A DNA stretch of 55,760 nt from Verrucomicrobiota bacterium (lineage in GTDB: Bacteria; Verrucomicrobiota; Verrucomicrobiia; Verrucomicrobiales; V1-33). Positions 5,982 through 28,195 of this stretch are shown here, in pieces. The stretch lies in assembly GCA_031429155.1 (NCBI GenBank), contig JANOZA010000855.1:1-55760 (forward strand), written 5' to 3'. A program made the position numbers and the translations under genes. Below the pieces are notes generated by a model. That model made no database searches, was not told the DNA's origin, and saw only the letters and a program-made list of their open reading frames with translations. Within the stretch, counting starts at the first letter, position 1, and the number at the start of each line of letters is the position of its first letter.

Positions 5982-8900
5982 GTGAATTCTACCAATCACA
6001 ACCGGTTTGACCTTGAGTCGCTGGAGCCGCGGCTGCTGCTGTCGGCGGATGGGCTTGGCGTGGGGGCGTTGCATGACTCGGCGCAGGATGAACTGGAGCG
6101 GCCCTTGGCGGTGGTGGAAGTGGCGGCGGGGTATGAAAGTTGTGTGGCGGGGGCAGGGGATGAGGACTCGATTTTTGGGGACTTTGAGGTGGAGGTTTCA
6201 CTGGGGGAGGAGACGGCGGATGAGGTGAAGGTGGATGAGCGGGCGGGGCAGGATGGCGCAGATTTAGACGTGACATTGACGGCGGTCGAAATGGTGACAG
6301 TGCCGGCTGATGAGTCGGGCGGGGCAGGGGAGGAAAGAGCGGCGGTGGTGGAGGCGACGCAGTCTTATAATAGTGAAGTGGTGCCCGATGGGGCGGCGGA
6401 TGAGGCAGTGCCGATGGGGCTGGAAGGCTCCGGCGACCCGACGACTGAGATCATGGTGGAGACTCTCCATGCGGCAAACGGACCTCCAGCGGATCAGGCG
6501 GGTACCGACGCTTCTGGCGGTGAACGCATTCTCAATCTGAACCAGGAGACTGCACAAAACATTGGAAATCAACTAGTCATCCATGAGGGGGAAACTCTCA
6601 AAGGGACTTGGGCGGCGGATATTGCGCTGATCCAGAATGGCGGAAGGGTGTCGCCGGGGAATTCTCCGGGTATTCAGAGTGTGGCGACCTACACACTTTT
6701 GAGCGGGGAGTTGGAGATGGAGATCGCTGGAGCGCCGGGACCGGGCATGACTGGCGCTGGCGTGACGTATGACCAACTTCAGGTGACGGGGCTGGCGACA
6801 CTGGGAGGAAGCGGTCGGCTGAGGATCACGATACTGGGCGGATATGTCCCGGTTTTGGGGGCTGCGTATCCGATCATCACATGGGGCAGCCATGCGGGTC
6901 AGTTTGAGAATTACCTGGGAACGGCGTCGGCTGGCAATGACCGGTCGTTCGTGATGAGCTACACGGGGGCGGGTCTGACGGTGACGGTGACGGCGACGCC
7001 AAATACCTACGATTTGGTGAAGGCGGATGTGGAAGGAGTGATCAATCAGTTGGGTGAGTTGGGCGAAAAACTGGATGCGGCTGGCGATTTTGCAGAGACC
7101 CTGCCGTTCATCGGCGAGAGTGTCGGGAGCCTGGTGGCGACGGTTTCGGCCATTCAGGGGGTGCTCCTGGACAAGCTGAATGACTTGGGTGCCGGGCTGA
7201 GTTTGGCGGACGTGACCGCGTATCTAGAGGGCTTGGAGGGGACGGTGCTCATGGGCTACACGATGCATGTGGAGGGGATCATCGGGACATTCGGGGCGAC
7301 GACGGCGCAGCCCTTCAGTTGGAAATATGATATTTTCTTCACACGGACGGATACGGTGAATTATGACCTCGGGGACAACGTGGCGTTCGGCGGCGTGGTC
7401 TCGGGGGCGGCGACCGGGTCGGTAACGAGTCGGTTTGATTTGGACTTCGCTTTCGGCAAGGACGGGGGCGGGGCGTATGTCAGTCTGGAGGAGTTTAAGG
7501 CCTGCGTGGACTTGAATACGGCACCGAGCATCTCGGTGGCTTTCGGCGCGCCGATCGGACTGACGGTGGCGGCGAATGGGACCGCGGTGCTCAATGCCTG
7601 CCTGACCATCGCCCCGAATGCCGGGATTCTGACCAGCGGGAAGATTTACCTCGCCACGCTGACCGGGCTGGGAGACGGCAGCGCGTCGGTGATCACCAAT
7701 TTCACTTGGACGCCGACGGCTTCGATCAATGTGGACCTGACGCTGACGGGCACTTCCTCCATCAACTTGGGGGCGGGGATCGTCATCGGAGGGGGGGGCA
7801 ATGCTCACCTGAAGATCGTGGGCAGCGACCTCTTTAATACCGCGCCGGATGTGGACATTGATTTCACCGGGGCGTCGGTCATGCTGACGATGCCGGGGTT
7901 GCCGAGCATTAAGGGCAGCTTCGACATCAACACGGACGGCGCGCTTACCTATATAGACGTCGGCATTACGGAACTGAAGATGCTGGTGGGGGCGACGCAA
8001 ATTGTGAACATGACCGGGACGGCCTCGCTGGTGTATGGGGACAGTCAGATCGCCGGGAAGGCGGACCTGACGCTGGGGTCCGGCCCGGTGCTGCCGAATC
8101 TGACGATCACGGGCGGCGTCTGGCATTTTGAACTGAACACGGGCAATGCGCCGGCGACGGTTCCTTATGATGGCGGGACGGTGGAGTTGCCCGCCGGTCC
8201 GTATCTGCGCGTGGAGGCCGACGGGGCGGCGGTGGGCTTCACGATCAACCCGACTTTCTCCCTGAGCGGGAATTTCGTCTTTGAGAAGAGCGGCTCGGAT
8301 GTTGCGGTGGGGGCCAGCGATGTGAGCTTCAACTTCACGGACGGCACGAACACGCTGATGAGCATCACGGAGGGCGTTGGCGGCTTCATTATTAAATCCA
8401 ACGGCATCGCCGGGATGCTTCAGGGGACTTTCGCCGAGAATATCCCTGTGGTGGACGTGAGCGGAACGTTTGGCGTGGAGTTCAATACGACGGGGGTCGA
8501 GATTGATACGACGATCACCGTGGACGGCGGAAGTGTCGCCATTGATACCGACCCCGGCACTTACCTCCAAATTTGGGGCGATGACACGGTCGTGGAAGTG
8601 CTCGGTGTGGGGATGTCGGGGAATTTCTTCTTTGAGAACCGGGAGACGACGACCGGTGGCGAGCGGGTGATCACGGTGGCGGTGACGAACCTGAATTTCA
8701 ATTTCGCGGACCTTACGACGGACTTGGTGTCGCTGACGAACGGCACGGGTGCCTTTATTATTACCAACACGGGTATGGCGGGCACGGCGAGCATCACCTA
8801 CGCGGTGGATGTATTCGGACTGGCCGCGGCATCTGGAACGGGGACGGTGATGATAAACCAATTGGCGACGCCGGTGACGGAGACGGTGAACATCGGCGGG

Positions 8901-11900
8901 GCGAATGTGAACATCGCCATGCCGGGCGGGCCTTATCTGCGCGTGGATACCGTCGGGACAGTGCTTTCGATCCTGAACAGCGACCTGACGGGCAATTTCT
9001 CCTACGAGCAGAAGACGACCGGCGACGGCGATGAAGTGGTGAGCGTGGCGGTGACGAATGCCAGCATGAGTCTGAAGCAGGGCGGGACGAATTTAATGAC
9101 GCTGACCGGCGGCGCGGGATATTTCATCTTCTCGGACGGCGGCATGGCTGGCACGGCCAGCGGCACGATCACGGAGTCGCTCGGCTTCCTCACGATGAGC
9201 GGCACGCTGTCGCTGGCGATCAACAACACGGATGCGGCGGTGAATGAAAGCTACACGCTCAATGGCATCACGCAGACTGTGAATGTACCGGCGGGGCCGT
9301 ATCTGAAATTCACAGGGGACAACATCGCGCTGACGATGACCGTGGGCGGCGGGATCGGCAGCATCACCGTGACGGGCGACTTTGGCTTTGAGCAGAAGTC
9401 CACGACTACGCTTGGCGTGACGACACTGGACTATATAAAGATCGGCGCGACGGATGTGGATGTGGACATCACGGCGGTGGGGATCAGGTTGGAAGCGCGC
9501 GATGGCGAAGGCGGCTTTGTTTTGAAGACGAGCGGCTTCGCTGGCGAGGCCACGCTGGGCAGCCTGGCGCTGGAAGATGCGGTATCTGGGCTGGCTCCGA
9601 CTTTCATGTCCATCGTGGCGACGGACATGGTCTTCCGCATTAACACGACCGGCGGGGTGGTGAATGAAACGGTCAGCGTTTCTTCCACGGAGGATGTGGT
9701 CCTCGACTTCACCGACGACTACTACTGGAACTACGTCGGAGTAGGCGGCGCGGTGGCAGTGACGCTGTCGAGCTTTGCGGACTTCAGCGGGAATCTGAAC
9801 TTTGAACTGTTTGACGTGGCGACCGTTGATACGATCCGTATCGCGGCGTCGGACGTGAGCATGGCCTTCACCATCGCAGGGGGCGATCCGCTGGTGAGCT
9901 TCTTCAATGGCGAGGGCGGTTTCGTCATCAAGAACACGGGCATCGCCGGTACGGCCAGCCTCCAGTTCCAGACTGGCTATGTGAATGTCAGCGGCACGAT
10001 CCTGCTGGAACTCAACACCACGGCGGCAGCGGCGAACTACACTTGGACCCCGCCCACCGGCCCGGCGATCAGCTTCAACCTGACGACGCCAAACTACCTG
10101 CGCATTTGCGTGAATGGCACCGTCGGCGTGGGCACGATCAGCATCCCGGTGAACTTCACGATTGAGCAGGTCGGCACGGATGTCGTCTTTAAGACCAAAG
10201 GCGGTGTGCCCCAGGTGATCTTCACGCTCGACTCCACCGGCACTTTCATCCCCGGCGCTTACTGGACGGGCTTGGGTCTCGGCGTGGACTTCGATTTCGC
10301 CAATCCGAGCCCGGAGGAAATCCTGACCTTCCTCCAGCGCCTCGGGAACTGGTTCAACCTGCTCGGCGGCAGCGACCTCTTTGATGTGGTCATTCCGTTC
10401 TCCGGCGGCACGACGCTGGGCGAGGCCGTGGATTGGGTGACGGCCTTCGTGGATGTCTTCTACAGCAAGCTGGTGAGCACGGAAGTCGCGGTGCCGCTCC
10501 CGGGCGTGGTCGTTCCTGCGGCTGGCCCGGCCGCCTCGTTCACCATCACCCTGAGCAGCGACCCGACTCCTTACCTTGTCACCACCGCGGCCTATGTCGG
10601 CGGCCTCAACGGGCTCATTGCGGCAATCAACACAGCGATCATGGGCGTGGTCGGGCTCGCTGGCAGGATTGAAGCCCGGCCCAGCCGCGACGGCCTGCTC
10701 TCGCTGGCCCTGACAGAGTCGGAAATCGCCGCCGGCACGCTCAGCTTTGCGCTCACCGGAGGCAGCGGATCGCTCATCACCGCGGGTCTCCCGGCCACGA
10801 CGAACAGTCAGACGATCTCCCGCTACACGCTGGAGCAGTTCCCCCTCGAGCTGAGCACCCTCCTTGGCCTCGGAACGCCGATCACCTACGACCCGATGCA
10901 AAAGCTCTACATCTTCCCGGTGGAAGTGGAAGTCGCGGGTACGGCGTTTGATGTGGACTTTGATTTCGGCGAGGAGATCGGGCCGCTCGGCACGGCATCG
11001 CTTTCGGGCACCATGAATTTCGTGCCGAAGGTGACCTTCAAGTTCGGCCTCGGGCTCGACCTGAATCCCGCCGACATTCCGCGGGTTTTCAGCAGCCAGT
11101 ATATTCCGGTGCCGAGCAATGGCCGGATCACTTCCAGCCTGACGTTTAAGCTCCACCTGAACAACAGTTCGGTGCCGATCACCGTGTCGCTGGCGAAGTC
11201 GGCCACAAACACGAACACCTCGGTGGCGGATCTGGCGGCGGATTTGAATGCCGCGCTGACGGCGGCGGCGAACTACACGCCACCGGGCGGCGTGCCGACG
11301 GACCTGCTGCAGTTGGTGCGCTTTGATTCCGGTGGCACCGTGCTGGTGCTCTCCGGCGTGAACGAAGACTATGATCAGGACGGCAAACGCGACACTTCGG
11401 AAGACACCATCATCGTCAATGGCTACCTTGATGACGGCGAAGACGCGGACGGTGACGGCAACTTTGACGTGAATGAGCCTGACTGGGACAGCGACTCAGT
11501 GCTCGACAATCGCGTCGGCCAGGTGAACCAGATTCGAATCACCGTGGATCAATACAGCACCTTTGCCACGGAGCTGGGCTTCGGCGACATAATCGTGAAC
11601 ACGGCGACGGTGGATTATCCTTACGGCTCTTATGAGAGCATAGGCAATGCGCCGATGAAGGGCTTCTTCCTCGAAAATGTGGAAATGTCGGCCAGTCTCG
11701 ACATCAACACGCCCGCTCCTTACATCGAAGGCAATCTCGTTTTCGGATTCCTCGAAGTCCTCGTCTCCCACGGCGAGGTCTATACTGACAACCCCGCAAA
11801 CCCCGACGACGCCATGATGGCCACGGTCGGCATTCGCGATCCCACGACCGGCAATCAGCGCTTCTATATGCCGGCGTTGATGGATGTGCTCGGCGACCTG

Positions 11901-14900
11901 GGCACTTACGTTGACTTCTCCCTCACCGGCGGCATTTACGCGGGACTCAAGAACATCTCCGCAGAGGTCGGCGGCGTGAACATTCTCAACAGCGGTGAGA
12001 TCAGCGTGTGGATCCCGGACATCAACATCCTGACGCTGAACGAAAACGTCTATGACGTGAACAATGCGGCGGCGAATACCGGAACATTCCTCACCTACCC
12101 CGATGCGGGGCTCAAAGGCGGGTTCAGCTTTGAGCAGATCACTTTCAACGACATCCTGCACGGCCTGAATGCGGTGGTGGACAAGCTGAGCGAGTTCAGC
12201 GCCTTCTCCTTCCTCGACGAGAAGATTCCGTTCATTGATCTGAGCCTGAACGATCTCGTGGATTATGCGGTGCAGTTTGGCGACTTGGTGGATGCTCTGG
12301 CCAATGGCGATGCCAGCAACATTCAGGAGATGCTCGAAGTCCTGGAAGACAGCATCGAGAGCCTGTTCCACCTCGATCCCGATGACTTCTCCATCACCTA
12401 CGACACGAACTCGATCAACTACGGCAGCGGCGTATCGAGCGATGTGCTCACCCACAACGGCGGGCCTGGAGTCGGGGCATGGGTGACATTTGACCCCGGC
12501 GGCCTCAACAACGCCTTTACCGTCACCCGCGATGTGAACGGCGTGGCATGGAACAACAGCCTCCTGCGCATTGAAGGGTCCAGCACCGTCAGTGGTAATC
12601 TGGCGACGGCTTCATGGGATCCGGTGAGCAAGATCATCACCATCCTCATTGATCCCGGCAACACGACAGCCGGGGCCATCGTCTCGGCGATCAACTCGCA
12701 AATCGGCGGTGCCTGGACGGCGGTGAATTTCGCGGGCAACGATGGCACAGGCACGGTGCGGACCAACGCCCTCAAGTTCCACTGGGAGTGGTCCACAGGC
12801 GTTGCACAGGAAATCCCGCTGCATCTCGACATCGCGGAACTCCTCGAAGGCCTCGGCGGCGACAATCCCGGCGTGCAGGCATTCCTTTCCGCCGCGTCGT
12901 CCATCCTTCACGTCTCCGGCAGCGGACTGCTCAATGTCAGCGCCGGAGCCGAGGTGAATCTTGATTTTGGTCTCGACCTCACGGACCCGACAACGGTGGA
13001 GGCCTTCCTCTACGACACCACGGGCGTCACGCTGGAGGCGAAAGTGACCATCACGGACCTGGAATTTGATGCCGCCATCGGCGCGCTCGGCGTTTTTGTC
13101 CGCGGCGGTGAAGTGACCTTCGACTATGACGGGGAAGGGTCCAGCACCGAAAGCGCCCAGATCACGCTGGGTCTCAAGGACCGCGACGGCGATGGCCGTC
13201 ACTACTTTGATTCTTCGTTCCTCAGCCTCGATAACATTGGCGTCACGGCGCACGCTGGCATCTACGCGGAGCTGCCGCTGTTCGCGCCGGTGGATTCCCT
13301 TCCTGTTGGCCTCAGCACTCTGGATGGCAATGGCGACGGCTTTGCCGACAACTCGCTGGGCGTGAGCATTCCCGATCTCGTCCGCCTCCTGCTCGGCGAC
13401 ACCACCGCGCTCTACACCACGAATGCCGCTGAGCGGGCGGATATGATCTTCGCCGGGGCGAATAACGACATCCGTCTCGATGTCGCGAATGGCTCCGGCC
13501 TGAGCGACATCAAGATCACGTTCAGTGACACGGGCTCGCTTTCCGCAGATTACCTCGCTGGATCGAATGAGATCGTGTTCGGCATAGACAGCGGTGTGAC
13601 CACGGCAGCGCAATTGCTGGCCTTCATCGCAGTCCCCGGCATCACCAACAATCCGGGTGGTCTGACTTGGAGCCTCGCTGCCAGTGATGCTGGGAATACC
13701 GGCCTCGGCACGCTGGCCAAGATCACCATCGCCGCGCCGGACCTCAGCGAGCTTTTCGCGGACCTCGATCTTTGCACTATCATTGACAGCTCCGTCGGTC
13801 CGCTGCTCGATGGCCTCGACGAGACGCTCGGAGACATCCAGCAGGCGCTGGAGGAAACAGTGCTCAACACCAATCTGCCGCTCATCGGTGGCGGCCTCGC
13901 CGGCGCGGCTTCCTTCATCGAAGACTTCCGCAACGGCCTGCTCGGCGAACTCCGCGCCCGCATCAATGCCGCCAACGGCAGCGCCATCGGCGCACTGGAG
14001 GACGCTATTAAGGAGGGTATCTGGAATTCCCTCGGGCCCGATGGGCTGAACCTGCTCGTGAATTTCGATGACGGCACTGACTTTGCCGCCGACGCCACCT
14101 TCGATGACTTGGACGTGACGCTTTCCTGCGACGACGGCCTCGTGGTGAATCTCCGGCTCAAGAAGTTCCTCGCCTTCCTCGACACCTCGGCGAACCCCAT
14201 TGATTTCGAGATCGGCGTGCCGGGCTTTGGCCTGGAAGTGGACGGCAACGTCGTGCTCGGCATCGGCTTCGATCTGCGCCTCGTCTTCGGCTTCAACAAG
14301 ACCGACGGCTTCTACCTCGGCACCGAAGGCGGCATGGAAGACCCAGAACTGGTGCTCGAATTCAGCGCCACCATTCCTGGTCTGCATGCTGGCGGCAGTA
14401 TATTCTTCCTCCAGCTCGACGTGATGGATGATCCCGATGCGCCGAGCCATTTCACCGGCGGCTTCTATGTGGACCTGATGGACCCGAACGGGGACGGGAA
14501 GCTGACGTTCGCCGAACTAAGCTCGGCAAACTTTGAGGACATCATCCACGGCGAACTCTCCGCAGAGGCTGATCTGAATCTCGACATCGCGGCCAGCTTC
14601 GGCGGCAATGCCAATTTCCCGCGCCTGCTGGCGGATTTCCATCTCGGCTGGGAATGGTCGTTGAGCGAAGGTTCCAGTGATCCGGTCATTGAGTTCAACA
14701 ACCTGCGTCTCGACCTCGGCACTTTCATTTCCGACGTGCTCGGCCCGATCCTCGAAGAGGTGCAAAAGATCACGCAGCCGCTCCAGCCGATCATTGATAT
14801 CGCGACCTTCAGGCTGCCGATCTTCAGCGAACTTGCGGGCAAGGACATTACCTTGCTCGACATCGCGCAAGGCTTTGGCTATCTTGATCCCGAGACGCGG

Positions 14901-17900
14901 AAGTTCATCGAGGACGTGATCGCCGTCGTGGAACTCATCAACAGCATCCCGACCGGCAGCGGCAGCATCTACATTCCGCTCGGTGCCTTCTCCATGCTCA
15001 CCAATGAGGACGGCGAGTATGACACCAACCCGCTGGGCAATCTGTCGGACATTGATCTGGATAGCGAACTCGCCAATCTCGGTAGCGAGTCCACGGCTAC
15101 CGGCACACAGATTTCGCAGACGACCGGCTTTGTGGACGGCGCGAATGCGATGGATGGATTCAGCCTGCCCTGGCTGAAGAACCCCAGCGAAATATTCGGC
15201 CTGTTCACCGGCAAGCCGGTCCGCCTTGTGGAGTGGCAACTGCCTACCTTTGCGTTTGAGTTCACTTATACGCAAAAGCTGCCGATCTATCCGCCACTAT
15301 ACGCTCAGTTTGGCGGCACGGTCGGTGCTTATATCAACATCGGCGTCGGTTTCGACACTTACGGCATTCAGAAGTTCATCGAAAACGGAGCGAAAGACGT
15401 CGCTCAGATTTTCGAGGGCTTCTATATCGCCGACTACGATGCCGAGGGCAATGAGCGGGCGGAGTTGACGCTGAGAGGCGAAATCTTTGCGGGCGTCAGC
15501 CTCAGCATCGGGCCGGTGGAAGTCGGCGTGCAGGGCGGCCTGGGAGTTGAAGTCACCTTTGACCTCAACGACATCGAAAAAGACGGCCGCGTGCGCATCG
15601 GTGAACTCATCGCCCTCGCCGAGCAGGATCCGCGCTGCATTTTCGACATCCACGGACGCGTGTATCTTTTCCTCGAAGCCTTCCTCAAGGTGGACCTGCT
15701 GCTCTTCAAGATAGACAAGACATGGCGCTTCGGGGAGTTCACGCTGTTCGAGTTTGAGAGCGTCTGCCCCGTTCCGGTGCTGGCTAGCGTCACGGGCGGC
15801 GTGCTGACGATCCACGTCGGCCTGAATGCGGGCCTCCGCCTGGAAATTGACACCAACGACAACAGCGAGACCTTTGTCATCCAGCACGTCAGCGGCGCGC
15901 AGGGCACGGAGACGGTTTCTGTCCAGTGGGGCAACTACACGCAGACCTTCGGCCCAGGCAGTGCGGATCATCCGGAAGCTTTCGACTCCATCGTGGCGCA
16001 CCTCGGGGAAGGGAATGACTACCTTGATCTCGGCACTGCGGTGACCACGGCCACCATCACCGGCGGGGCGGGGAATGACACGATCCTGCTCGGTGTAGGC
16101 ATCACTTCCACGGCCAAAGGTGAGGACGGCGACGACATTATCACCGCCGGCTCGGATGATGTGCTGATCGCCACGGGCGTCATCATCGAAGGCGGCAACG
16201 GCGCGGACCTGCTCACCGGCGTGAAGACTGCCATCACCATCAAGGGCGACGGCGGCAGTGACAAGATTTACGGCACGCCGGGCAACGACACGCTCGAAGG
16301 CGGCGACGGTGCAGACCTCATTTATGCCTACGGCGGCGATGACATCATCAAAGGCGAGGCCGGCAATGACACGATCTATGCCGACAGCGGCGCCGACACG
16401 GTAGAGGGCGGCGACGGCAATGACCTCGTCGAGGGCGGATTGGGGAATAACCGGATCCACGGCGGCAGCGGCAGCGACCGACTCTATGGGGGCTCGGACC
16501 ATGACTTGATCGTTGGCGGCACGGGCGACGACGAAATGTATGGCTATGGCGGCGTGGACCTGCTGGTGGGCGATGACTTCAACTGGACCGCTTTCACCGC
16601 AGCGAACATGAACAGCCTGGTGCTGGCCGGCAGCGCGGGAGGGAGCTTCGCCCTCCAGGATATCACCGGCAGCGGGAATGACAAGATCATCGGCGGCGGC
16701 AGCTACGATGTGATCTTTGGCGGCGACGGCGATGACTACCTCTTCGGCGGCAATCTCTTCACCTCCGGGGTTTCCCAACCCATTGAGGAGGACGACAACG
16801 ACTTTATTGATGGCGGTCGCGGCGATGATGAAATCTTCGGCGACGACAGCCTCGGCAAGACCGGGGACCGCATCACCGGCATTTCCATTGAAGGCGTCGT
16901 CTTCCACGACCTCAATCTCACCAACCTTTACGATGGCGATCCGGACCTCGACGACAGCGACCGCGGGCTGGCGGGGGTGATCGTGAAGCTTTATAAAGGC
17001 AGCGATGACTCGCTCTTCTCCGAGACCGTGACCGACAGCGCGGGCCGCTGGCAGTTGCTGGGCCTCGACCCTCTCAGCTATTATCTGAAATTCATCAGCC
17101 CGATTGGCTACACGGTGGTGACAATCAATGCCGGCTCGGCGCTGGGTCTGGATGACATCAACGAGCCGGGCGATGACAGCGATGTTTATCAGGAGAGCAT
17201 CACCCCGGCTGGCGCTGTCACCGCGAGGACGGCGGCCTTCGACCTCGGCTACGATGAAGCCGAGACGACCATAACTGCCGGCTACGCGGGCGATCCGACG
17301 CTGACCATTTACAACGAGGCCGTCTATGAGCGCAGCGAGGGCCAGACCAATTCCGCGACCTTTACGCTGACGCTCAGCGGCCCGTCCGGAGTCGCAATCA
17401 CGCTCGACTACCACACGCTGGATGGCGATGCGGGCATGGTCACGCCGGCCTACGAAAAGGCGCTGAACGCCGACAATGATTACGAGCCGATCATCGCCGG
17501 CATGGTGACTTTCCAGCCGGGCGAGATCAGCAAGACGATTACGGTCATCATCAACGGCGACTCGAAGTTTGAACTGCATGAGGGCTTCTTCCTCATCATC
17601 GAGCCGCAGGTGCCGTCACAGCTTTATACTTCGCCGACGAGCATCTCGACCAAGCAGACAATCATCAATGACGACGCCGCGCCGAGCATTACCATCACGG
17701 ACGTGACGATCAGCGAGCCGGCCACGGCGCTCGATCTGGCGGAGATGCGCTTCACGGTGCGGCTGTCGAACCAACACTGGGCGGGCCTCGTGAAGGTGGA
17801 CTACCTCACGACGGATGCCTCGGTGCTCGACGGCGATGCTGTAGGCCACTCGGCTACGGCTGGTGCGGCGAAGGACTACATCGCCCAGGGACCAACGACG

Positions 17901-20900
17901 CTGACTTTCGGTGCCGGCGAGGTGGAGAAGATCATCACCATACTGGTCAATCTCGACAACATTGATGAGTATGATGAGGCGTTCTACGTGAACCTCTTCA
18001 ATCCGGTCTTCTCCACCATCGGCGATGACCGCGGCTATGGCATCATCCTGGATACCGACGCCGCGCCGACGGTTTTGATCAAGCCATTCATCATGGATGC
18101 CGACCCCAGCGGTCAGAGCACGACGGTCTTTGAACTGCACACCGAGTCCACGATGGCGCTGTTTGATGTGATTATCACCGGGGCCACGGAAAAGACGATC
18201 ACGGTCAACTGGAGCACTGCTCGCGGCACCGCGGAACCGGGCTTTGGAATTGCGGTGGGCGACTACTTCGATCCCGCGACCAGCGACACCGCTGACGAAG
18301 CCGCCACCAGCGACACCACGCTCGTCTTCGCGCCGAATGGAATGCTGACGCAGACGAAGCAAATCAGCGTCGAGGTGCAGGGCGACACCCTTGATGAGGA
18401 CGTGGAAGAGCACTTCTACGTGAACCTACTCACCGCGGACGGGGCCACGATCACGCAAAACCACGGCGTCGTCCGCATTCTTGATGACGACGGCCCCGGC
18501 GGTTCCGGAGGGCCATACGATGTGCGATTCGCCCGCGCCAATTTCCAGGATTGGGAAACCGAGACGACCCATGACGGATTCCTCACACTGGTGCGCACCC
18601 CCGGCCCTGGCCAGGCCTACACCATTCTCACCGTCACCGGCGGCACGGCCACGAGCGGCGCGGACTATATCGCCACCACCAGCCAGCTCATCGTTTTCGC
18701 GGTCGGTGAATATGTGAAGCAGGTGCCAATCTCGATCATTGGCGACGAGATCAACGAGTATAACGAGACGATCACATTCAGCCTGCGCCGCCCGACCGGT
18801 GCTCCCTCCAATGGCGTGCCCTACGTGGCGACGATGACGATCCTGGATGACGACAATGTTAGCATCTATGTCCATGCCTCCATCACCAATCAGGTGGAAG
18901 GCACTGGCGGCCATGTGTTCCACGTTCACCTGGTGGACGCGGACAATCCGGTGATCGGCGATTACAAAACCACCGAGCAGAACATCACGTTCAACTATCG
19001 GACGCTGGCCATCACTGCGACCGCCGGCAGCGATTATGTGAGCATCCCGCTCACGGCCGGCTTGTTCAATTCTCCGGCCAACTCTTTCCTGTCCATCCCC
19101 GTGACGGACGTGGGTAATGCCACGCCGGAGTTCTCGGAGGTCTTCCGCGTGCTGGTGAGCAGCGTCGTGGGTGCGAGCGTTTACGTTCCGTATGCCGACG
19201 GTGTTATCCTCGACGACGACAAGGCGCTCATCGAAGGCTACATCTTCCAGGACGACAACGAGAACGGCTATTGGGACGATGTCACGGAGTCGGCCTTCGG
19301 GGACGTGAATGTGACGATCACGGATTCCGGCGGCGGTGTTTATCCGGTCACGACCACTCCGGCGGGCTATTACTCCGCGTCCATACTGCTCGGGGATCTC
19401 ACTTTCCGCGTGCTGGAGAATGACACCATCGAGGGCTGGGAAGTCACGACGGAGAATGACTCCCAATCCGCCGAGTTTGACGGCAGCGTGGGCCTCACGC
19501 CGCTGACGCCGGTGGGCTATCGCACCACGGAGGAGATCGAACTGCCGAACAGCGCAGACAGCGTGGGCCGGGGCGGCACGGATGACACGCTCTTCGGTGG
19601 CCCGGGCGATGACTACATTGATGGCGGCGCGGGCGATGATCACATCGTCGGCGGTCACTGGCAGACGGCCACGGATTCCGCGGCCCCGATCAATACCGGC
19701 ACCTACGACGCGACGATCATCGCCAACTACATCAAGAACGGCCCGCCTGTTGTGCCGCCGCTCGTGCCGACTGAAATCCAGGATCCGCAAACGGCGCCGA
19801 TCTGGACCGTGAATACTGCCATCGGGGCCGGCACGGGCCTGGTCAGCGGGAATATCTTCGTGGACACCAATGACTCCAGCCGCCACGACGAGGGGCTGTA
19901 TCTCTTTGAAGTCGTCGTCACGCTGCTCGACTGCGATTCCAATATCATTGATGTCCAGGCGACGAGCACGGGCTTCTATGAGTTCGATGGACTCTACGAG
20001 AACGATTACTACCTGGTGTTCAGCCTGCCCGCCGGTCAGCAGTTCGTGGCCCCTAATGTAGGCGCTGACGGCGATGACAGTGATGCGGAGTATGCCGGAG
20101 CCACCGCGGCGTATCATTTCAACGTGGGCCAGGCGCGGACGAATGTGGATGTTGGTCTGGAAGTAGCCGGCTCGGCCGCCGTCGCCAGCACTTCCAGTGT
20201 GGAATTTGACCAGCCGGAATATCATGTCGTGGAAAGCGCCGGAGTCGTCACCATCACCCTGATTCGTACCAATGCCTCCACTGCCGAGGCCGTCGTTTGG
20301 TTCGCCGAAGACGGCGCTGCGCTGGAGGGCTCGAACTACACTGGCGTGCAGGGCATCGTGATTTTCGGCATCGGCGAGACGCTGGCTACTTTTGAGATTC
20401 CCATCCTCGACTCCGGTCTCCCTTCCGCCTGCGATGTGAAGGACTTTCACCTCAGCGTGCGCCGCCCGACCGGCCAGCCGATCCGCGGCGGTGAAGCCGA
20501 TGTCTATATCCACGGCGAAGGCGGCATCCCGCTCACGGACGACGACACCATTCTCGGCGGCGAAGATTGGGACATCATCCTCGGCGACAGCGGCCACATC
20601 ACCTCCTACGTGGTCCAGGCTCAGTTTGTGAACCCTGTGACTGACATCGAAGACAACGCGGGCATGGGGCACGACACGATCTACGGCGACAACGGCCCTG
20701 ACTACATCAACAGTCAGCTCGGCAATGACCTTGTGGTCGGCGGCGAGGGCAATGATTACGTCTTCGCCGGCTACGGCGATGACCGCATCATCGTGGAACT
20801 CGACGACGACACCATTGATGGCGAGCATGGCACCGACACCATCGCCGGCGTCTCGAATCGCACCTTCATCACGCTGACCGGCGGCGCGGATCCGCAGGAA

Positions 20901-23900
20901 CTGCGCTTCGGCACCTCGGCGGTCTTCAATGTCGCGGACAGCGTCTTCACGCTCTACAAGATCGAAAAGGCGGAAGTCTTCGGCACCCCGGGCGACGATA
21001 CCATCACCATCAATACCTTCGCCGGCGAGGTCTTCGTCTTCGGCGATGACGGCAATGACGTTCTCCAGGTCCAGTCCGACGCTGCGACCATGACCGCCGC
21101 AGATGCCAGCGCGATCCAGAAGCTCATCTACCTGATCTTCTACGGCTTCAATGTGGAGGCCAATGTGACGCTCTCCACCGGCGCGGCCTATCACTTCGGT
21201 GAAATGGAAACCGTGAAGCTGACCGGCGGCCCATCCGCAAATGTTCTGGATGGCGGCGGCTGCAGCTTCGATCTCATCTTCGACGGTGCTGCGGGGAACG
21301 ACACGCTCATCGGAGGCGGCGGCGATGACACCTTCCTCTTCGACCTCGATCTCGTGAACGGCGCCGACACAGTGACTGGCAACGGCGGTCTTGATACCAT
21401 CAGCTTCGCGGGCAGCTCCAATACCGCCCACGCGGTCCTTGATCTCGGCAACATCGGCAGCAACCAGACGGTGCGCACCGGCTCCCTCCTCCTCAATCTC
21501 ACCGCTGAAGACATCGAAGGTGCCACCGGCGGAGACGGCAACGACAACCTCACCGGCAACAGCCTCGACAACATCCTCGACGGCGGGCTCGGCGGCGACG
21601 TGCTCACCGGACGCGCCGGCAGCGAGACCTATCGCTACGACCTCGACCTCGGCCTCGTGCAGGCCGATGAGATCGTGGAAAACGGCGCTGACGCTGGCCA
21701 CGACATTATTGACTTCTCCACCACCACCGGCGTGGCCGTCTCGCTGAACATGCAACTCACCGCGTTCCAGCCGGTGGGCGGCGGGCTCTCGCTCAAGATC
21801 ACCGGCACCGGCGTGGATGAAGTGATCGGCGGCTCGCTGGCGGACAATATCACTGGCAACAGCGGCAACAACACCCTGCGTGGCGGCCCGGGCGATGACA
21901 CGCTCTACGGTGCTCAGGGCGACGACTTCCTCGACGGCGGCGCAGGCACGGACTTGCTGGACGGCGGGGAAGACGGCGAGATCAACGGCGACAGCATCGC
22001 GGCCATCGCCAATTCCAACTTTACGCTCACGGACACCATGCTCCTGCGAAACGGCAGCGACGTGGATAACCTCTTCAATATCGAAACCGCCACCCTCACC
22101 GGCGGCGCGTCGAACAACGTCTTCACCCTCACCGGCTGGACCGGCAATGCGACCATCAATGGCAAAGGCGGCACGGACACCATCGTCTTCACCGCGGACG
22201 AAGACATGGACCTCGCTACCTCCGGCGGCACTGATGTGCTCAGCGTCGGCATCGCGCCCTTCACCTTCACCGCCTCCAATGTCGAGCGCTGGACCCTCAC
22301 CGGCGGTGTGAGTGCCAACAACATTGACGCCAGCCTCTACACCCGCGCCGGCGGCTTCCTCACTTTGTCAGGCAACGGCGGCGCGGATACGATCATTGGC
22401 AGTCAGAATGACGACCTCATCAACGGCGGCAGCGGCAACGACAATCTCACCGGGGGCAGCGGCAACGACACAATCCTCGGTGGCACCGGCACGGACCGCG
22501 TGATCGAAACGACCGACCTCACTATGTGGGTCGTGAATTCCGGCCTCGAAATCACCCGTGTCGCCACCGGCGTGGAGACCGACGATCACACATCCATCGA
22601 AATACTCGACCTCAGCGGCGGAGCCGGCCCGCAGACCTTTGTTTATACCGGCTCACTGGCCAGCGTCACCGGCATCAGCTTCGCCGGCGGTCCGGGCAGC
22701 GATGTTGTGGGAGCCATTTGGAACGGCAACATGACCGCCACCAACGCCCTGATGACGCTCGACGGCGCGCCGCCCATCAGCATCTCCAACATGGAAATCG
22801 TCGCGCTCCTCGACGGCGCAGGCGATCACCTGCTGGATGCCAGCCTCTTCACCGGTGTCGGCGGCGCGTTCCTCTCCGGCGGTGGTGGCAACGACGTGCT
22901 CAAAGGCACCGGCGTCGCAGACACGCTCATCGGCAATGCCGGCAACGACAGCCTCGAGGGCTTCGGCGGCAATGACTCGCTCAACGGCGGCGACGGCGAC
23001 GACACTTACCTCTTCAACACCTTCCTCGCCCTCGGCACCGACACTATCATTGACTCCGGCGGCACGGACAAACTGGACTTCTCCGCCAGCACCGTCACCA
23101 ACGTTGTGAACCTCACGCTCATCGCCAATCCGGTGCATGTGAACCTCACGCTCAACTGGGCCCTCGGCACGCTCATTGAGAATCTCACCGGCGGCAGCGC
23201 CGTGGACACCTTCACCGGCGATGCCAACGCCAACGTCCTCACCGGCAACGGCGGCAACGACAACCTCAGCGGCGGCCTCGGCAATGACACTTACGTCTTC
23301 GATGTGGATACCAACCAGGGTGCCGACATTCTGACGGACACCGGCGGCGTGGACACGCTCGACTTCTCTGCCACCAGCAGCGCGAAGAATCTCACGGTGA
23401 ACCTCAATCTCGGCGGCGTGCAGCAGACTGACGCCGCCACGCTCTTTCTCTCCATTACCAACGCGAGCAGCATGGAGAACGTGGTCGGCGGTGAAGGCAA
23501 CGACATCCTCACCGGCAATGCCGCGAACAACAATCTGACCGGCAATGGCGGCAACGACACCCTCACAGGCAACAACGGCAATGACACCCTCACTGGTGGG
23601 GCCGGCAACGACACTCTCCAGGGTAATGCAAACGACGACACCTACGTCTTCAACGCCGGTCTTGCTGGTCAGGGCTTGGACACCGTCAGCGACAGCGGCG
23701 GCACCGACACGCTCGACTTCTCTGCCACCTCCGGTCTCGGTATCACCTTCACGCTCGGTTCGACCGCCATTCAGACTGTCGCCCTCGCAGCCCCGACAAA
23801 CCTCCGGGTGCAGTTGAATTCGGCAGCGGCTTTTGAAAACGTCATCGGCGGCAGTGGCAATGACACGCTCACCGGCAACAACCTCGTCAACACCTTCACC

Positions 23901-24440
23901 GGCAACGCCGGCAGTGACACCATCAACGGCTCCGTCACCGGCAATGACCGACTCGCCGAGACCCGCGATGTGGACTTCACCCTCCTCGATTTCTCCGCCA
24001 CTCAGGCTCTGCTCACGGTGAACGGCATCGAGACCGACACCCTTAACAACATTCACTACGCCACCCTCACCGGCGGCGACTCCGCCAACACAATTGATGT
24101 CAGCGAATTCGGCAGCCTCGCCACCGTCGTCACCACCGCCTTCCTCAACGGCATGGGCGGCGATGACACCCTCATCGGCGGCGGCGATGCTGACCTGCTG
24201 CTCGACCATGTCATGAACTTCGACGGCGGCACCGGCGACGACACTTACGTCTTTGATCTCGCGCTCCGTTCTCTCAACACGATCACCGAAGGTGCCGGCG
24301 ACCTGCATGACACCATCATCGGTGCCGGCGGCGGTCTCGTGGACCTCGCCGCCATCGTCTTCCATACGCCGGATGCCATCAACTATCCCTTCTTCCAACT
24401 CAAGTTCACCATCGCCTCCACCGTGGAGCACACGCTATGA
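5982..24440 (+). CDS. Giant (6152 aa) secreted repeat protein: LEPR-XLL N-terminus, unassigned tandem repeats, RTX-type Ca-binding repeats, Calx-beta and SdrD/Cna-B-like modules
   Basis: A single uninterrupted ORF with a GTG start at 5982. The N-terminus [24 protein letters not shown] matches the LEPR-XLL motif seen on PVC-group giant proteins. Many GGxGxDxL/I nonapeptides occur. Calx-beta-like signatures include [28 protein letters not shown] and [38 protein letters not shown] hexamer lies at 5934-5939. Confidence 0.9.
   Translation: [6152 protein letters not shown]
8100..10230 (+). repeat. About six tandem ~115-140 aa coding repeats inside the giant gene (family not recognised)
   Basis: A recurring block reads (E/I)(F/L)NTTG ... 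P(A/G)GPYL(R/K)(V/F) ... (S/T)GNFxFE(K/Q) ... VAVTNxxFxF ... LxSxTxGxGxFI(I/L) ... G(I/M)AGTAS. The GPYL-type anchors sit near nt 8200, 8560, 8935, 9295, 9715 and 10085. Confidence 0.8.
16060..16850 (+). repeat. RTX / hemolysin-type Ca-binding nonapeptide block 1 (coding)
   Basis: [107 protein letters not shown]. Confidence 0.85.
17290..19220 (+). repeat. Array of about five Calx-beta-like modules (coding), flanked by SdrD/Cna-B-like modules at ~16880-17285 and ~19225-19490
   Basis: Each ~105-140 aa module ends in an ...ILD(D/T)D boundary and contains xDYxxxxxxLxFxxGExxKxIxVxIxxDxxxExxExFxVxL. The Cna-B-like segment reads [36 protein letters not shown]...[12 protein letters not shown]. Confidence 0.75.
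20540..24260 (+). repeat. C-terminal ~1240-aa RTX-type or parallel-beta-roll repeat region (coding)
   Basis: Dozens of GxxGNDxLxG units occur, for example [37 protein letters not shown]. They are interleaved with recurring GG(T/V)DTLDFSATS ... spacer modules. Confidence 0.8.
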
Positions 24441-27400
24441 AAACGCACTCAGCCACAGAACCAGGACGGCCCCGCGGCCCCTCGCCGGGCCTGCTGCCAC
24501 GCGCGGCGTGGCTCATCGCTGCCTTCGCGGCACTCTGCTTCGCCGGCAGCGTCCGCGCGCAGGGCGGCAGTCTCATCGTCATTGATAAAATCCTCGCGGC
24601 AGAGGACAACGTGGATGTTTACGATCACGAGGGCGACCTGCCCGCCGTGATTTACATCAAAAACAACGGCACCGGCCCCGCCACCATCTCGAACTTTTCC
24701 CTCACCGATGATCAGCAGGAGCCCAGGAAATGGATTTTCCCTTCCGGTACCATCACCATCACCATCGGAGCCGGCCAGACCCTTCCGGTCTTTGCCTCGG
24801 GAAAGAATCGCCTAACATCGCCCTACGCCACGAACTTCGTCCTGCCCTGCAATTCCACCGGGTACCTTTACAACCCACAGTCAGGGCTCATCTCGCAGAA
24901 GGGAGTCTTCGGTTCCGAATGCCCGGAGTGCTTCGATTTGATCCCCGATACGGTTAACAACGCCTATCTCGTTCCCACCGCCTCCAATCCCCCTCAGACC
25001 GGCACCGACTGGCGGCTCCCGGCATTCAGCGACACCCAGTGGCCCCGCTCCTTTCCGTGCCTCGGCTACGAAAGCGATCCAATCGTGAACAACATGATCC
25101 TCTACTCCACGTTCGACACGCCGGATGTGAATGTCGCTGCCAGGACCATCACCGACGTCAGCGGTCCCGCCGTTTTCCACACCGGCACCTGGCCCGCATC
25201 GGCGGCGGCCTCGAACATCGGCATCCCCATGACCTCGCTGCCGAAGATACTGCAAAACGTAGAGTTCTACGGCATCAACAACGCCAACAGCTACGTGGAG
25301 TATGTGCATAACGCCGAACTCAATCCCCTCACCGCCAGCTATAGTTTCTCCGTCTGGTTTCGCCCCACCAACAACGACATCTCCAATGGTGAGGTCATCT
25401 TCCGCAAAGGCCGCGTCTCCACCACTGACACCACCGGCTTTGTTCTTTCCCGCGGCCCTTCCAACCAGCTTGCCTTCAGCATCTTCACGCCCGGTTCCCC
25501 CAACATCAATGTCACCACCCCGATCAATACTGCCACGCTGAACGCATGGAATCATGCAATGGTCGTCATCACGCGGACCACCACGCACACCGCGAAGATT
25601 TACCACAACGGCATTGAGAGAGCCTCCGGCAACATCCCGGCCGCCCAGTCCGTCACCGGCGGCACCACCGCCCCCAACGCCAATCTTTACCTCGCCCGCG
25701 CCATCTCCGGCGGCGGCCCCGTCAATTTCACCGGCAGAATGGACGACTTCGTTACATGGGGCCGCGCCCTGCCTCCGGCGGAGGTCACCCGCGTGTATGA
25801 CACCGGCAATGCCGGCAAGAAAGTCAATGACCCCACCGCCCCCGGCGGTCCCGGAGTCCTCTTCGCCCCCTGCATCCAGACGAACGTCCAGACCGCCATG
25901 AAGAACGTCAATCCCGGCATCTACCAGCGCCTGCCATTCTTCGTGGCCAATCCTTCCGCCGTCAGTGCCATGACTTTCAAAGTGAAGTATGCCGATGGCT
26001 TCATCGCTTACATCAACGGCGTCGAAATCGCCCGCCGCAACGCGCCCACCAGCGCGGTTTGGAATTCCGCCGCCACCGCCGACAGGCCCGATGCCAGCGC
26101 CATCATCCTCGAAGAAATCCCTGTCCCCCCAGCCGCCATCGCCGCCCTCACCGTGGATGGCCAAAGCATCCTCGCCATCCACGCCATGAACTTCACGGCC
26201 AACCAGGACCGCTTCCTCATCTGCCCGGACCTTTGCTATGAAGAAATGGGCCCCGAAGACTGCTACACCACCACCAGCGGCCGGGACTTCTGGATCACCT
26301 ATCCGGGCAATGCCCCTGACGACACCGCTAATCCACTCCAACTCAGCGTCTGCATCACCGGCAGTTTCGGCACTCAGGTCATCGCCACCATCCCCGGTCT
26401 CGCATGGAGCAGCGGCCTCCTCGCCCTCCCCGCCGGCGGGAGGCTGGACGTCGTCCTGCCCAAAGCCGCCAGCCTCGACAAGAGCGACACCATTGAAAAC
26501 AAAGGCGTCCACATTGTCGCCAGCAAGACCGTCGCCGTGTATGGCAAGACGCGCATAGATTTCTCCACCGACACTTTCGTCGCGCACCAAATCAAGACTC
26601 TGGGCTCCAGCTACATCGTCCTCGGCTGGGGAAACAAGTGGCCCTACGCAGACCTCAACGGCTCGCAGTTCGGCATCGTTGCCACTGCCAACAACACCCA
26701 CGTCACCATCAAGCCCACCGCCACCACCGGCGCGCACATCGCGGGAGTGCCCTATAATTTCATCTTCAACCAGGGCCAGACCTACCTGCTGCGGAATACC
26801 ACCGACGCCGCCGACCTCACCGGCACAGAAATCACCTCCGACAGCCCTGTTGCCGTCTTCGGCGGGCACCGCTGCGCCAATGTGAACGGCGAGGTATTCT
26901 TCTGCGACACCGTGCTGGAGCAGACCCTCCCCGTCGCGCTCTGGAAGACCGAATACTGCGTCGCCCCACTCGCCACCCGCACCAGCGGCACCGAACTCAT
27001 CCGCGTCGTCGCTGCGGAAAACGGCACCACCGTCTCCATCAACGGCGTCGCCCAGCCAACCGTGCTGAACAAGGGTGATAAGCAAAACTACACGCAAGCC
27101 GGCGGTGCCGTCATCACCGCCAACAAAAAAATCCTCGCCGCTCACATGTCCCGCAGTTCCGATGCCGATGGCGTCGTCAATGCCGACCCTTTCCAGATCA
27201 ACGCCCAGCCCAGGACGAGTTGGCTGGCCGGCTACAAATTCTGCACCGCTCCGGCGACTGAATTCGGCACCCATTACGCCAACATCATCGCCCTGAATGG
27301 GGAGATCGCCGGCGTTGCCGTGAATCCCCTGCCGCTGGCCGATACCGGTCCTGTTGCCATCGGAGTCACGGCCTATTCCTACCGTCAGGTCACCCTCGCC

Positions 27401-28195
27401 GCTGGCACCACCTACACCAGCAGCGGACGCACCCACGGCCTGGAAATCTACGGATGGGGCGAATACGACTCCTACGGCCACACCGGCGGCATGGGCTTCG
27501 CCGACAGTCTGCCGCCCACCTTTACCCAGTGCCCGCCGGATATCACCATTTTCACAACTCTCATCCCTGGTGCCGGCGAACGCGCCACTATGCCCGATCT
27601 CGGCGCGCAGTTCGGCGTCACCGACAACTGCTGCCCGCTGACCACCCTTTCGATCGTACAAACTCCCGGACCCGGCACCCTTCTCGCGGTCGGTGACTAC
27701 GTCGTCATCATCCAGGCCACCGACTGCAATCAGAACACCATCACCTGCGTGGTAAATGTTCACGTCCGCACCGACCCCCGCGCCGCCGCCTTCCCCACCC
27801 AGTTCGGCAATCCCGCTCTCGAAGCCACCGTCTGGGGCTGGCAGGCGGATCCTGATGGTGATGGATTGTCCAATGAAGTCGAGGATGCCCTCGGGACCAA
27901 CATGGCTGTGGCTGTGTCCGGCGAGCTTTCTTCCGCGTTGAGCTTTCGTCGCGTCTCTTTTGGCAACGTGGATGGTGTCGAGGTCAGCTACCGCAAACGA
28001 AATAACAATCCGTCCTACGACTACAGCCCCGAAGGCAGCGCTGACCTGAATGGCTGGTTTAGTGGCCTCGGTCATTTCGAAGAAACCTCCATCACCCCCG
28101 ATACCCTCGCTGGCTTTAACCGTGTTCGTGCTTTCAGCCACGACAGTGTTCCTTTCAGCCGCTTCTTCCTGCGCCTGATCATCCGCAGGAACTGA
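24437..28195 (+). CDS. Secreted 1252-aa multidomain protein: lamin-tail-like domain, LamG/ConA-like lectin domain, IgGFc-binding-N-like beta-helix region, HYR domain, thrombospondin-type-3 motif plus C-terminal tail
   Basis: Its ATG (24437) overlaps the giant gene's TGA (24438-24440). Signal peptide: AAWLIAAFAALCFAGSVRAQG. LTD-like: LIVIDKILAAEDNVDVYDHEGDLPAVIYIKNNGTGPATISNFSLTDD. LamG-like: YSFSVWFRPT...GRMDDFVTWGRALPPAEVTRVY. Also GRDFWITYPGN. HYR-like: PPTFTQCPPDITIF...GDYVVIIQATDCNQNTITCVVNVHV. Ca-binding-type motif: DPDGDGLSNEVED. Confidence 0.9.
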   Translation: MKTHSATEPGRPRGPSPGLLPRAAWLIAAFAALCFAGSVRAQGGSLIVIDKILAAEDNVDVYDHEGDLPAVIYIKNNGTGPATISNFSLTDDQQEPRKWIFPSGTITITIGAGQTLPVFASGKNRLTSPYATNFVLPCNSTGYLYNPQSGLISQKGVFGSECPECFDLIPDTVNNAYLVPTASNPPQTGTDWRLPAFSDTQWPRSFPCLGYESDPIVNNMILYSTFDTPDVNVAARTITDVSGPAVFHTGTWPASAAASNIGIPMTSLPKILQNVEFYGINNANSYVEYVHNAELNPLTASYSFSVWFRPTNNDISNGEVIFRKGRVSTTDTTGFVLSRGPSNQLAFSIFTPGSPNINVTTPINTATLNAWNHAMVVITRTTTHTAKIYHNGIERASGNIPAAQSVTGGTTAPNANLYLARAISGGGPVNFTGRMDDFVTWGRALPPAEVTRVYDTGNAGKKVNDPTAPGGPGVLFAPCIQTNVQTAMKNVNPGIYQRLPFFVANPSAVSAMTFKVKYADGFIAYINGVEIARRNAPTSAVWNSAATADRPDASAIILEEIPVPPAAIAALTVDGQSILAIHAMNFTANQDRFLICPDLCYEEMGPEDCYTTTSGRDFWITYPGNAPDDTANPLQLSVCITGSFGTQVIATIPGLAWSSGLLALPAGGRLDVVLPKAASLDKSDTIENKGVHIVASKTVAVYGKTRIDFSTDTFVAHQIKTLGSSYIVLGWGNKWPYADLNGSQFGIVATANNTHVTIKPTATTGAHIAGVPYNFIFNQGQTYLLRNTTDAADLTGTEITSDSPVAVFGGHRCANVNGEVFFCDTVLEQTLPVALWKTEYCVAPLATRTSGTELIRVVAAENGTTVSINGVAQPTVLNKGDKQNYTQAGGAVITANKKILAAHMSRSSDADGVVNADPFQINAQPRTSWLAGYKFCTAPATEFGTHYANIIALNGEIAGVAVNPLPLADTGPVAIGVTAYSYRQVTLAAGTTYTSSGRTHGLEIYGWGEYDSYGHTGGMGFADSLPPTFTQCPPDITIFTTLIPGAGERATMPDLGAQFGVTDNCCPLTTLSIVQTPGPGTLLAVGDYVVIIQATDCNQNTITCVVNVHVRTDPRAAAFPTQFGNPALEATVWGWQADPDGDGLSNEVEDALGTNMAVAVSGELSSALSFRRVSFGNVDGVEVSYRKRNNNPSYDYSPEGSADLNGWFSGLGHFEETSITPDTLAGFNRVRAFSHDSVPFSRFFLRLIIRRN

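Follow-up and report, generated by a model that had tools for sequence, protein, structure and literature searches.

A Conserved LEPR-XLL Giant RTX Protein of a Verrucomicrobiota Bacterium and Candidate Routes for Its Export

Introduction

How can a bacterium deliver a protein of several hundred kilodaltons to its exterior when the chain carries no Sec signal and no secretion genes stand beside its own gene? This question is raised by one open reading frame (ORF) of 6152 codons on contig JANOZA010000855.1 of a Verrucomicrobiota bacterium (assembly GCA_031429155.1), of which the whole length of 55,760 nucleotides was analyzed and is hereafter called the window. The encoded protein starts with an LEPR-XLL motif and ends with RTX repeats. 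To our knowledge, the passage of Sec-signal-free proteins of 0.5–1.5 MDa through two membranes has been explained only in the case of the adhesins of the type I secretion system (T1SS). A preliminary description of the window, made from its letters, had regarded the LEPR-XLL start as a sign of a different route, and it is this suggestion that is followed up here.

LEPR-XLL proteins (NF012209, “LEPR-8K”) include a Vibrio protein of approximately 8000 residues with RTX and serralysin C-terminal domains (PMC10868602), and no experimental study of such proteins was found in the searchable literature. Kamneva, Poudel and Ward described in 2015 a five-gene locus, the secondary SecA_DEAD or T1SS-related locus, and proposed that it acts in secretion, its SecA domain serving as the ATPase (PMC4452313). 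Giants of the LEPR-XLL/RTX kind had hence been catalogued but left unstudied, and the export set had been published with no named cargo. What is added here is the recognition of a core module as a widespread domain lacking a model, a conserved C-terminal tail, an inventory of the export genes of this genome, and the adjacency of a set gene to a giant of the same orthologous family. Taken alone, the gene is a further member of a catalogued and unstudied family; its interest comes mainly from the LEPR-XLL start and the SecA-like set, which point to a little-known form of giant-protein export.

Results and Discussion

An Intact and Conserved Giant Gene

The window is one whole contig, the longest of a draft assembly consisting of 919 contigs (6.8 Mb, N50 9.9 kb, 93% complete). 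The giant gene occupies 5982..24440 on the forward strand as one intact open frame of 6152 codons, and the combination of this length with DNA of 61% G+C makes a chance origin impossible. The GTG at 5982 is the earliest start 3′ of an in-frame TGA at 5946–5948 and matches the position of the ATG in close orthologues (“MTATDQRRFELESLEAR” versus “VNSTNHNRFDLESLEPR”). Both the uninterrupted frame and the GTG start given in the preliminary description were retained. A search of 5.8 billion proteins gave approximately 60 independently assembled orthologues of 5.9–6.5 thousand residues, with which the giant protein was aligned over its full length; all come from Verrucomicrobiota isolates or metagenome-assembled genomes (MAGs), such as Limisphaera ngatamarikiensis. 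The closest of them, a protein of 6133 residues that was assembled independently, yielded a single gapped alignment to residues 14–6152 with 66% identity. A frame of the same size was present in each locus taken from 25 related genomes; two of these genomes are from cultured Limisphaera isolates, and one is a closed chromosome of 6.08 Mb. The ratio of nonsynonymous to synonymous substitution (dN/dS), evaluated against the two nearest orthologues, came to approximately 0.25 for the whole gene and stayed under 0.55 in all of its regions; these values are rough, since synonymous change is close to saturation. The giant gene is real, conserved, and under purifying selection throughout.

One may suspect that the frame is an artefact, generated when short-read assembly collapsed repeats or joined them into a chimera, or that it is a dead, unexpressed gene, because the draft genome is as fragmented as described above and the gene contains internal repeats. 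We regard this as very improbable. The end-to-end alignment with the independent 6133-residue orthologue counts against collapsed or expanded repeats, and same-sized orthologues occur in cultured Limisphaera as well as on the closed MAG chromosome. Self-comparison further showed that the internal repeats are mutually 25–40% identical, which is too divergent for collapse and makes an assembly artefact very unlikely, and the purifying selection covers every region of the gene. Many long antisense ORFs (maximum 1109 residues) overlap the giant gene on the reverse strand between 7224 and 24431; most likely, these frames mirror the biased, G+C-rich codon usage of the giant gene and are not genes themselves.

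The encoded protein has a mass of 638 kDa and contains 837 acidic residues (D+E) versus 200 basic ones (K+R), together with 11 cysteines (0.18%). In a scan of the whole sequence, no hydrophobic segment reached the length that a membrane helix or a Sec signal requires. Such a composition, free of transmembrane segments and poor in cysteine, fits an extracellular calcium-binding protein.

LEPR-XLL Start

The LEPR-XLL motif (DLESLEPRLLLSADGL) lies at 6012..6059 (residues 11–26, forward strand) and scored 22.8 bits against NF012209, for which the cut-off is 17, as expected from the preliminary description. Correctly started orthologues follow the N-terminal pattern x(2-40)-[FY][ED]LE[AS]LE[PAQ]R[LIV]LLS. 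In the Limisphaera orthologues the motif starts 2 residues past the Met, so that no Sec signal can precede it, and no Sec-type signal was found before or after the motif in the giant protein. The acidic low-complexity stretch noticed earlier was located at 6072..6476 (residues 31–165, forward strand) and constitutes a linker that is the least constrained part of the protein. Against the closest orthologues it is 37–40% identical with a dN/dS of 0.46–0.51, versus 73–76% identity for the LEPR-XLL region, of which the dN/dS is 0.13. Within the 6.8-Mb assembly, an LEPR-XLL start was present in one ORF only, the giant gene itself. Judging from its extreme N-terminal place and its far stronger conservation than the linker, the LEPR-XLL start appears to behave like a signal.

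The end of the linker bears an ETL(R/H)AANGPP motif (6459..6488, forward strand), which recurs in nearly all orthologues read. The candidacy of ETLRAANGPP as a LapG site was rejected, as the di-alanine of R-[AS]-[AS]-N-G-P-P varies among orthologues, and a Pfam scan of residues 1–650 in pieces gave no family match for a LapA-type N-terminal retention module. It was also considered whether LEPR-XLL is a double-glycine leader for a C39 ABC transporter; this was rejected because residues −1 and −2 lack conservation. A homologue of 5997 residues (P0057, 33% identity) carries neither the LEPR-XLL start nor repeats in its N-terminal region of approximately 700 residues, which contains instead an alpha/beta-hydrolase-like “LLLHGIGGS” motif. 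This suggests that N-terminal modules are swapped within the giant family.

SecA-Like Export Set and Its Link to the Giants

No gene for an ABC exporter, HlyD or TolC was detected among the proteins of the 55.8-kb window, which agrees with the lack of neighboring T1SS genes reported earlier; export sets were located on other contigs. All five genes of the “secondary SecA” set are present in this genome, split over three contigs. On contig C727, genes for an OEP (91 bits), a 247-residue HlyD adaptor and a 620-residue GAF-HlyD adaptor stand in a row up to the contig end. Contig C862 contains an M50-HlyD fusion (HEMGH...NPLLRFDGYY), which was found by a phmmer search with the adaptor part and exceeds the Peptidase_M50 cut-off. 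The fusion is cut by the contig end and is 75% identical to the complete 717-residue fusion of locus L040. Contig C242 encodes a SecA paralogue of 655 residues with SecA_DEAD (299 bits), PP_bind and a P-loop, from which the wing and the scaffold are missing. This paralogue shares 53% identity with SecA copies inside sets elsewhere versus 42% with the housekeeping SecA of its own genome. The five set genes form one operon in loci L086 and L088.

Some further observations were made on these loci. The SecA paralogue follows carbon-nitrogen-hydrolase-like and SnoaL-like genes and adjoins a type I restriction methylase fragment (C242:1-4253). Assemblies break directly past GAF-HlyD in two independent cases, namely C727:1-191 and L039 (end of CAZFZN010000017.1), and a transposase gene is located a few genes 3′ of GAF-HlyD in L038; this junction may hold repeated or mobile DNA. 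Direct abutment of C727 and C862 was rejected, as their ends do not overlap and the short C727 ORF past GAF-HlyD is unlike the N-terminus of the M50 fusion. In the metagenome contig L041 (1-2004 and 19140-21560), large cadherin/Big_9-type proteins flank the export set on both sides, one of which lacks an LEPR-XLL start and carries an ordinary signal peptide.

A connection between the set and the LEPR-XLL giants was suggested by gene order elsewhere. In locus L009, an OEP gene orthologous to that of C727 (55% identity) stands divergently less than 100 nt upstream of giant P0010, which is a 48%-identical orthologue of the present giant. A metagenome scan with the M50 fusion gave 43 loci, about 16 of which had a flank of at least 5 kb. 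The M50 fusion was followed by a SecA-like ORF in at least 22 of the 43 loci. A long ORF with an LEPRxLL start was located within 10 kb in 7 of them, that is, 7 of the approximately 16 with enough flank, representing at least 3 lineages; the frequency in the present genome for comparison is one such ORF per 6.8 Mb. Four set-linked giants (L058, L061, L064 and L072) share the N-terminal module of this protein, and the L072 giant matches residues 7–313 (E 3e-13) and possesses the same 122-residue repeat type. The five-gene set in the genome, the L009 adjacency and the metagenome loci lend circumstantial support to the earlier suggestion that LEPR-XLL signifies a different export route. From these features of sequence and gene order we infer, with doubt and confidence about evenly balanced, that the giant is exported via its LEPR-XLL start by the SecA-like/M50/adaptor/OEP set.

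Several points speak against this assignment. In this genome, as in most relatives examined, the giant gene and the set lie apart; this was seen in L038–L042, in L086 and L088, and in the close relative GCA_964523105.1 (L031 versus L039), and in the present genome, the set itself is spread over its three contigs. The M50 fusion shows at its N-terminus a PqqD-like match that remains under the threshold (14 bits, E 0.06). The giant exhibits all the sequence hallmarks of a T1SS substrate, which are the C-terminal RTX repeats, the serralysin-type C-terminal domain and the conserved tail, and an ABC/HlyD/TolC triad exists in the genome. The label “adhesin” was assigned by domain analogy alone, based on the Calx-beta modules, the SdrD_B/Cna-B-like modules and the giant RTX adhesins. 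Experiments on the cargo transported by the set, or on recognition or cleavage of LEPR-XLL, were not found in the searchable literature, and Kamneva et al. name no cargo and call the role of the locus unknown (PMC4452313).

Conserved Core Module

A stretch of about 1900 residues ahead of the RTX repeats had been described as free of recognizable motifs. It indeed gave no Pfam match, but it holds the best conserved part of the protein, a core module of approximately 800 residues at 13689..16106 (residues 2570–3375, forward strand). The core is 55% identical in orthologues that are only 37% identical over the whole protein, and its dN/dS of 0.165 is the lowest among the large regions. It is also found, at 28–35% identity, in giant RTX proteins of other architectures, among them proteins of the planctomycetes Stieleria, Rhodopirellula and Phycisphaera, and RTX repeats come directly after it in all relatives examined. 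When 1.84 billion proteins were searched with a profile of the core, 2416 cluster representatives were obtained at E<=1e-30, nearly all of which span the whole ~790 positions and are proteins of 2–8 thousand residues. The clusters are for the most part LEPR-XLL/RTX giants. Of the representatives listed, 104 reach 3000 residues or more; an LEPRxLL-type start was present in 67 of these and at least 5 RTX nonapeptides in 96.

The AlphaFold2 (AF2) model of the core, with a predicted local distance difference test (pLDDT) of 73.8 and a predicted template modeling score (pTM) of 0.44, consists of three long helices followed by many amphipathic hairpins of 15–19 residues. EF-hand-like loops, such as DPNGDGKLTFAEL, are also present in the core. 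A Foldseek search of this model against the PDB gave no significant match (best E 2e-3, TM-score ~0.1). The insignificant list was composed mostly of membrane barrels and pore-forming toxins, which were listed because of the long hairpins alone. The core is regarded here as an undescribed domain; it has neither a Pfam model nor a fold match. The giant belongs to a large uncharacterised class that combines the LEPR-XLL start, the 800-residue core and RTX repeats; thousands of giants carry the core, and defining a domain model for it would improve the annotation of many genomes.

Alternative Explanations

The C-terminal end of the giant calls for consideration of a classical T1SS, the main rival of the route proposed above, by which the chain would leave the cell C-terminus first via an unlinked transporter triad with its tail as the signal, and LEPR-XLL would be used for another purpose, for example, retention in the channel or periplasm. 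We consider this route rather unlikely. The protein ends with a second RTX block of approximately 1300 residues (20523..24413, forward strand), assigned by PF00353, at the end of which is a serralysin-type C-terminal RTX domain (Peptidase_M10_C 25.6 bits, cut-off 20.7); the last 300 residues match both HemolysinCabind and Peptidase_M10_C. This block is followed by the extreme C-terminus ASTVEHTL (24414..24437, forward strand), of which the pattern ...STVE[HYF][ST][FL] was found in 52 of 68 close homologues versus 31 of the 8729 ORFs (0.4%) of this genome. Signals of the serralysin and lipase classes consist of an acidic residue, a short stretch and a hydrophobic last residue, and the present tail similarly shows an acidic residue and then a short stretch with a hydrophobic end. 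The preliminary description had found the C-terminus not obviously a T1SS signal; as the tail proves to be conserved in the subfamily, such a signal may be present. In addition, the genes of a T1SS often lie apart from the gene of its substrate, and the genome-wide search did reveal a TolC-like/ABC/HlyD-like gene row on contig C105 (1766-10956, reverse strand). This row is, however, of the bacteriocin type. Its ABC transporter, the sole one of this kind, has a C39 peptidase domain with a catalytic-type Cys (DCGPACL) and the NHLP bacteriocin exporter as its top match (430 bits), whereas in RTX exporters a C39-like domain is normally inactive or missing altogether, and a double-glycine leader is absent from the giant. 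The triad remained under every T1SS cut-off, with bit scores of 413 for HlyB (cut-off 726), 253 for PrtD (510), 104 for HlyD (209) and 61 for TolC (225). An ABC-type T1SS was next to the giant in none of the orthologues examined. The tail, moreover, is restricted to the subfamily; in the wider core-module family, across which LEPR-XLL is distributed, it is rare, with 6 cases among 104. The genome thus holds one LEPR-XLL giant, a single copy of each of the five detected set genes, and one ABC triad of the bacteriocin type; since the orthologue is carried by L. ngatamarikiensis and Limisphaera sp. VF-2, which are cultured relatives, the two export routes could be separated by gene removal and secretome proteomics. 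The C105 triad is flanked by genes for a 651-residue WD40-type protein and a 398-residue Ser/Thr-kinase-like protein.

A different function would follow if the core hairpins insert into a target membrane as the pore regions of RTX and MARTX toxins do, which would make the giant a weapon, either contact-dependent or a secreted cytolysin, against prey or competitors. The core lies directly before the RTX repeats in all relatives examined, like the hydrophobic domains of RTX cytolysins; its strands of 15–19 residues alternate between hydrophobic and polar positions, and its weak fold hits were all membrane barrels or pore-forming toxins. These hits were, however, all insignificant (E > 0.001, TM-score ~0.1), and the alternating pattern is just as typical of soluble beta sandwiches. 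Neither an acyltransferase gene nor a toxin or enzymatic domain nor an immunity-like gene was found in the window. The N-terminal repeats are built in the same long-hairpin style, and this style, common to both parts, suggests a structural stalk. A weapon is therefore judged improbable.

Proposed Role and Comparison with Known Systems

It is well supported that the giant is secreted, folds with calcium and belongs to the cell surface or matrix, and that it is co-produced with a lectin-like partner encoded next to it. By analogy, it is most likely a surface or matrix fibre of the adhesin type. If its export depends on the SecA-like set, LEPR-XLL would be an address tag for an ABC-less, TolC-linked apparatus encoded on other contigs. 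This apparatus would be composed of an outer-membrane OEP channel, a small adaptor, a GAF-adaptor, a fusion of an M50 intramembrane protease and an adaptor that may start with a weak PqqD-like leader-binding domain, and a truncated SecA-type ATPase, which would serve as the motor. Binding of external calcium would fold the RTX repeats, the Calx-beta modules and the EF-hand-like loops, and thereby render the export irreversible, and the long-beta-hairpin N-terminal half and the 800-residue core would form the stalk. A broader proposal, which we offer with some reserve, is that LEPR-XLL tags an undescribed ABC-less route for megadalton-class proteins, in which a wing-less SecA would push the chain through a conduit of M50 protease, adaptors and TolC, the protease would cut the tag, and the core would be a domain diagnostic of this cargo class.

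The giant RTX adhesins, such as LapA of Pseudomonas, MpIBP of Marinomonas, SiiE of Salmonella and FrhA of Vibrio, resemble the present protein in being extremely acidic, in reaching hundreds of kDa and in containing modules that depend on calcium, as well as in a C-terminal RTX beta-roll, the lack of a Sec signal, and a modular stalk combined with binding-type domains. Unlike them, the giant has no adjacent genes for an ABC transporter, a membrane-fusion protein and an outer-membrane protein, no recognizable LapA-type retention module, and no tandem BIg extender. It also differs by its LEPR-XLL start and by the long-hairpin beta modules without a family match that make up half of it. Its likeness to the LEPR-XLL family (NF012209) consists in the N-terminal motif above the cut-off, the giant size and the C-terminal RTX/serralysin-type repeats. 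Within that family it represents a Verrucomicrobiota subfamily distinguished by a fixed architecture of ~6 thousand residues, a Calx-beta/SdrD_B block and a C-terminal tail of its own.

The export set agrees with the Kamneva 2015 locus in having an OEP, an HlyD/biotin-lipoyl adaptor, a GAF-HlyD protein, a Peptidase_M50-HlyD fusion and a SecA_DEAD protein without wing and scaffold. It departs from that locus in being distributed over three contigs and unlinked from the giant, and the assignment of giants as its cargo is based on the L009 adjacency and the metagenome loci. Giants of Omnitrophota with built-in SecA_DEAD domains have also been reported (West-Roberts et al., bioRxiv 10.1101/2023.11.21.568195). 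They are likewise tied to wing-less SecA-type ATPase domains, which are proposed to aid their own export, and large antiparallel beta structures have likewise been predicted for their unannotated parts. In those proteins, SecA lies inside the giant, many transmembrane segments are present, and type II-like secretion genes are nearby, whereas the Verrucomicrobiota giant has no transmembrane segment and its SecA-like protein is separate.

Other Modules of the Giant Protein

The N-terminal half, which includes the core, had no relatives in the databases searched: residues 1–3350 gave no Pfam match at E<=0.01 and no PDB sequence relative at E<=1, and a looser Pfam scan of this half in five pieces gave sub-threshold matches only. 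NCBIfam likewise offered nothing above cut-off for residues 1–3400 beyond the LEPR-XLL start. The AF2 model of residues 160–900 (pLDDT 76) shows, in order, a compact beta domain (residues 182–338), three long helices, and antiparallel hairpins of 13–19 residues that continue through the repeats. The beta-rich domain corresponds to the SPGNSPG...YDQLQVTG module (6525..6995, forward strand), in which the pattern itself is found at residues 224–270. This module recurs in LEPR-XLL giants adjoining the SecA-like set, and it gave a local match to the antigen 43 passenger (Foldseek probability 1.0, E 0.034, 164 columns). The three helices were modeled at 7011..7229 (residues 344–416, forward strand), with long beta hairpins after them. 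These parts are succeeded at 7932..10181 (residues ~651–1400, forward strand) by approximately six repeats of ~122 residues, identified by self-comparison and composed of antiparallel strands of 13–15 residues in the AF2 model. The next part, at 10182..13688 (residues 1401–2569, forward strand), is non-repetitive and has no family above cut-off; an Asp-rich cluster (residues 1795–1843) and an EF-hand-like loop (residues 2400–2411), both on the forward strand, were read in it. The module, the repeats and the Asp-rich cluster are all consistent with the preliminary description. When the two AF2 models were compared with PDB structures by Foldseek, all hits were marginal (large barrels, ApoB and antigen 43; TM-score ~0.1–0.2), and they were not taken as homology.

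Downstream of the core, the RTX assignment was clear, with PF00353 reaching 235 bits over 16 stretches, and a count of nonapeptide cores gave 38, arranged in two large blocks and one small one. The two RTX blocks noticed earlier could thus be confirmed. Block 1 was placed at 16062..16880 (residues 3361–3633, forward strand) by PF00353, self-comparison and nonapeptide count. Between it and the C-terminal block, the order at 16881..20522 (forward strand) is SdrD_B 1, Calx-beta 1–5, SdrD_B 2, a short RTX stretch, SdrD_B 3 and Calx-beta 6, and the Calx-beta and SdrD_B modules were scanned as cut-outs. Of the six Calx-beta modules that had been proposed, modules 1, 2, 4 and 6 were supported by PF03160 scores of 35.9–54.8 bits against a cut-off of 27; module 5 was weak (22.1 bits), and the cut-out, insert-rich module 3 gave no PF03160 match. 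The three Cna-B/SdrD-like modules fared similarly, in that modules 1 and 3 were above the SdrD_B cut-off and module 2 was weak (26 bits versus 29.7).

Neighboring Genes

The giant gene has ftsK upstream of it. Its partner gene (24437..28195, forward strand) encodes 1252 residues and is translationally coupled to it, its start overlapping the stop of the giant gene (ATGA). The partner protein possesses a Sec signal peptide together with LTD, Laminin_G_3, IgGFc_binding and TSP3 domains. Its homologue was located directly 3′ of the giant gene in 7 related loci, and a different Sec-secreted protein takes the partner position in other clades. The C-terminal end of the partner (27800–28195) comprises a TSP3-like Asp-rich motif and then a tail of approximately 90 residues with a basic-hydrophobic end, which may be a sorting signal. 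Farther downstream, the window encodes at 43146–44870 a protein of 574 residues with a weak match to the Tubulin/FtsZ family (64 bits).

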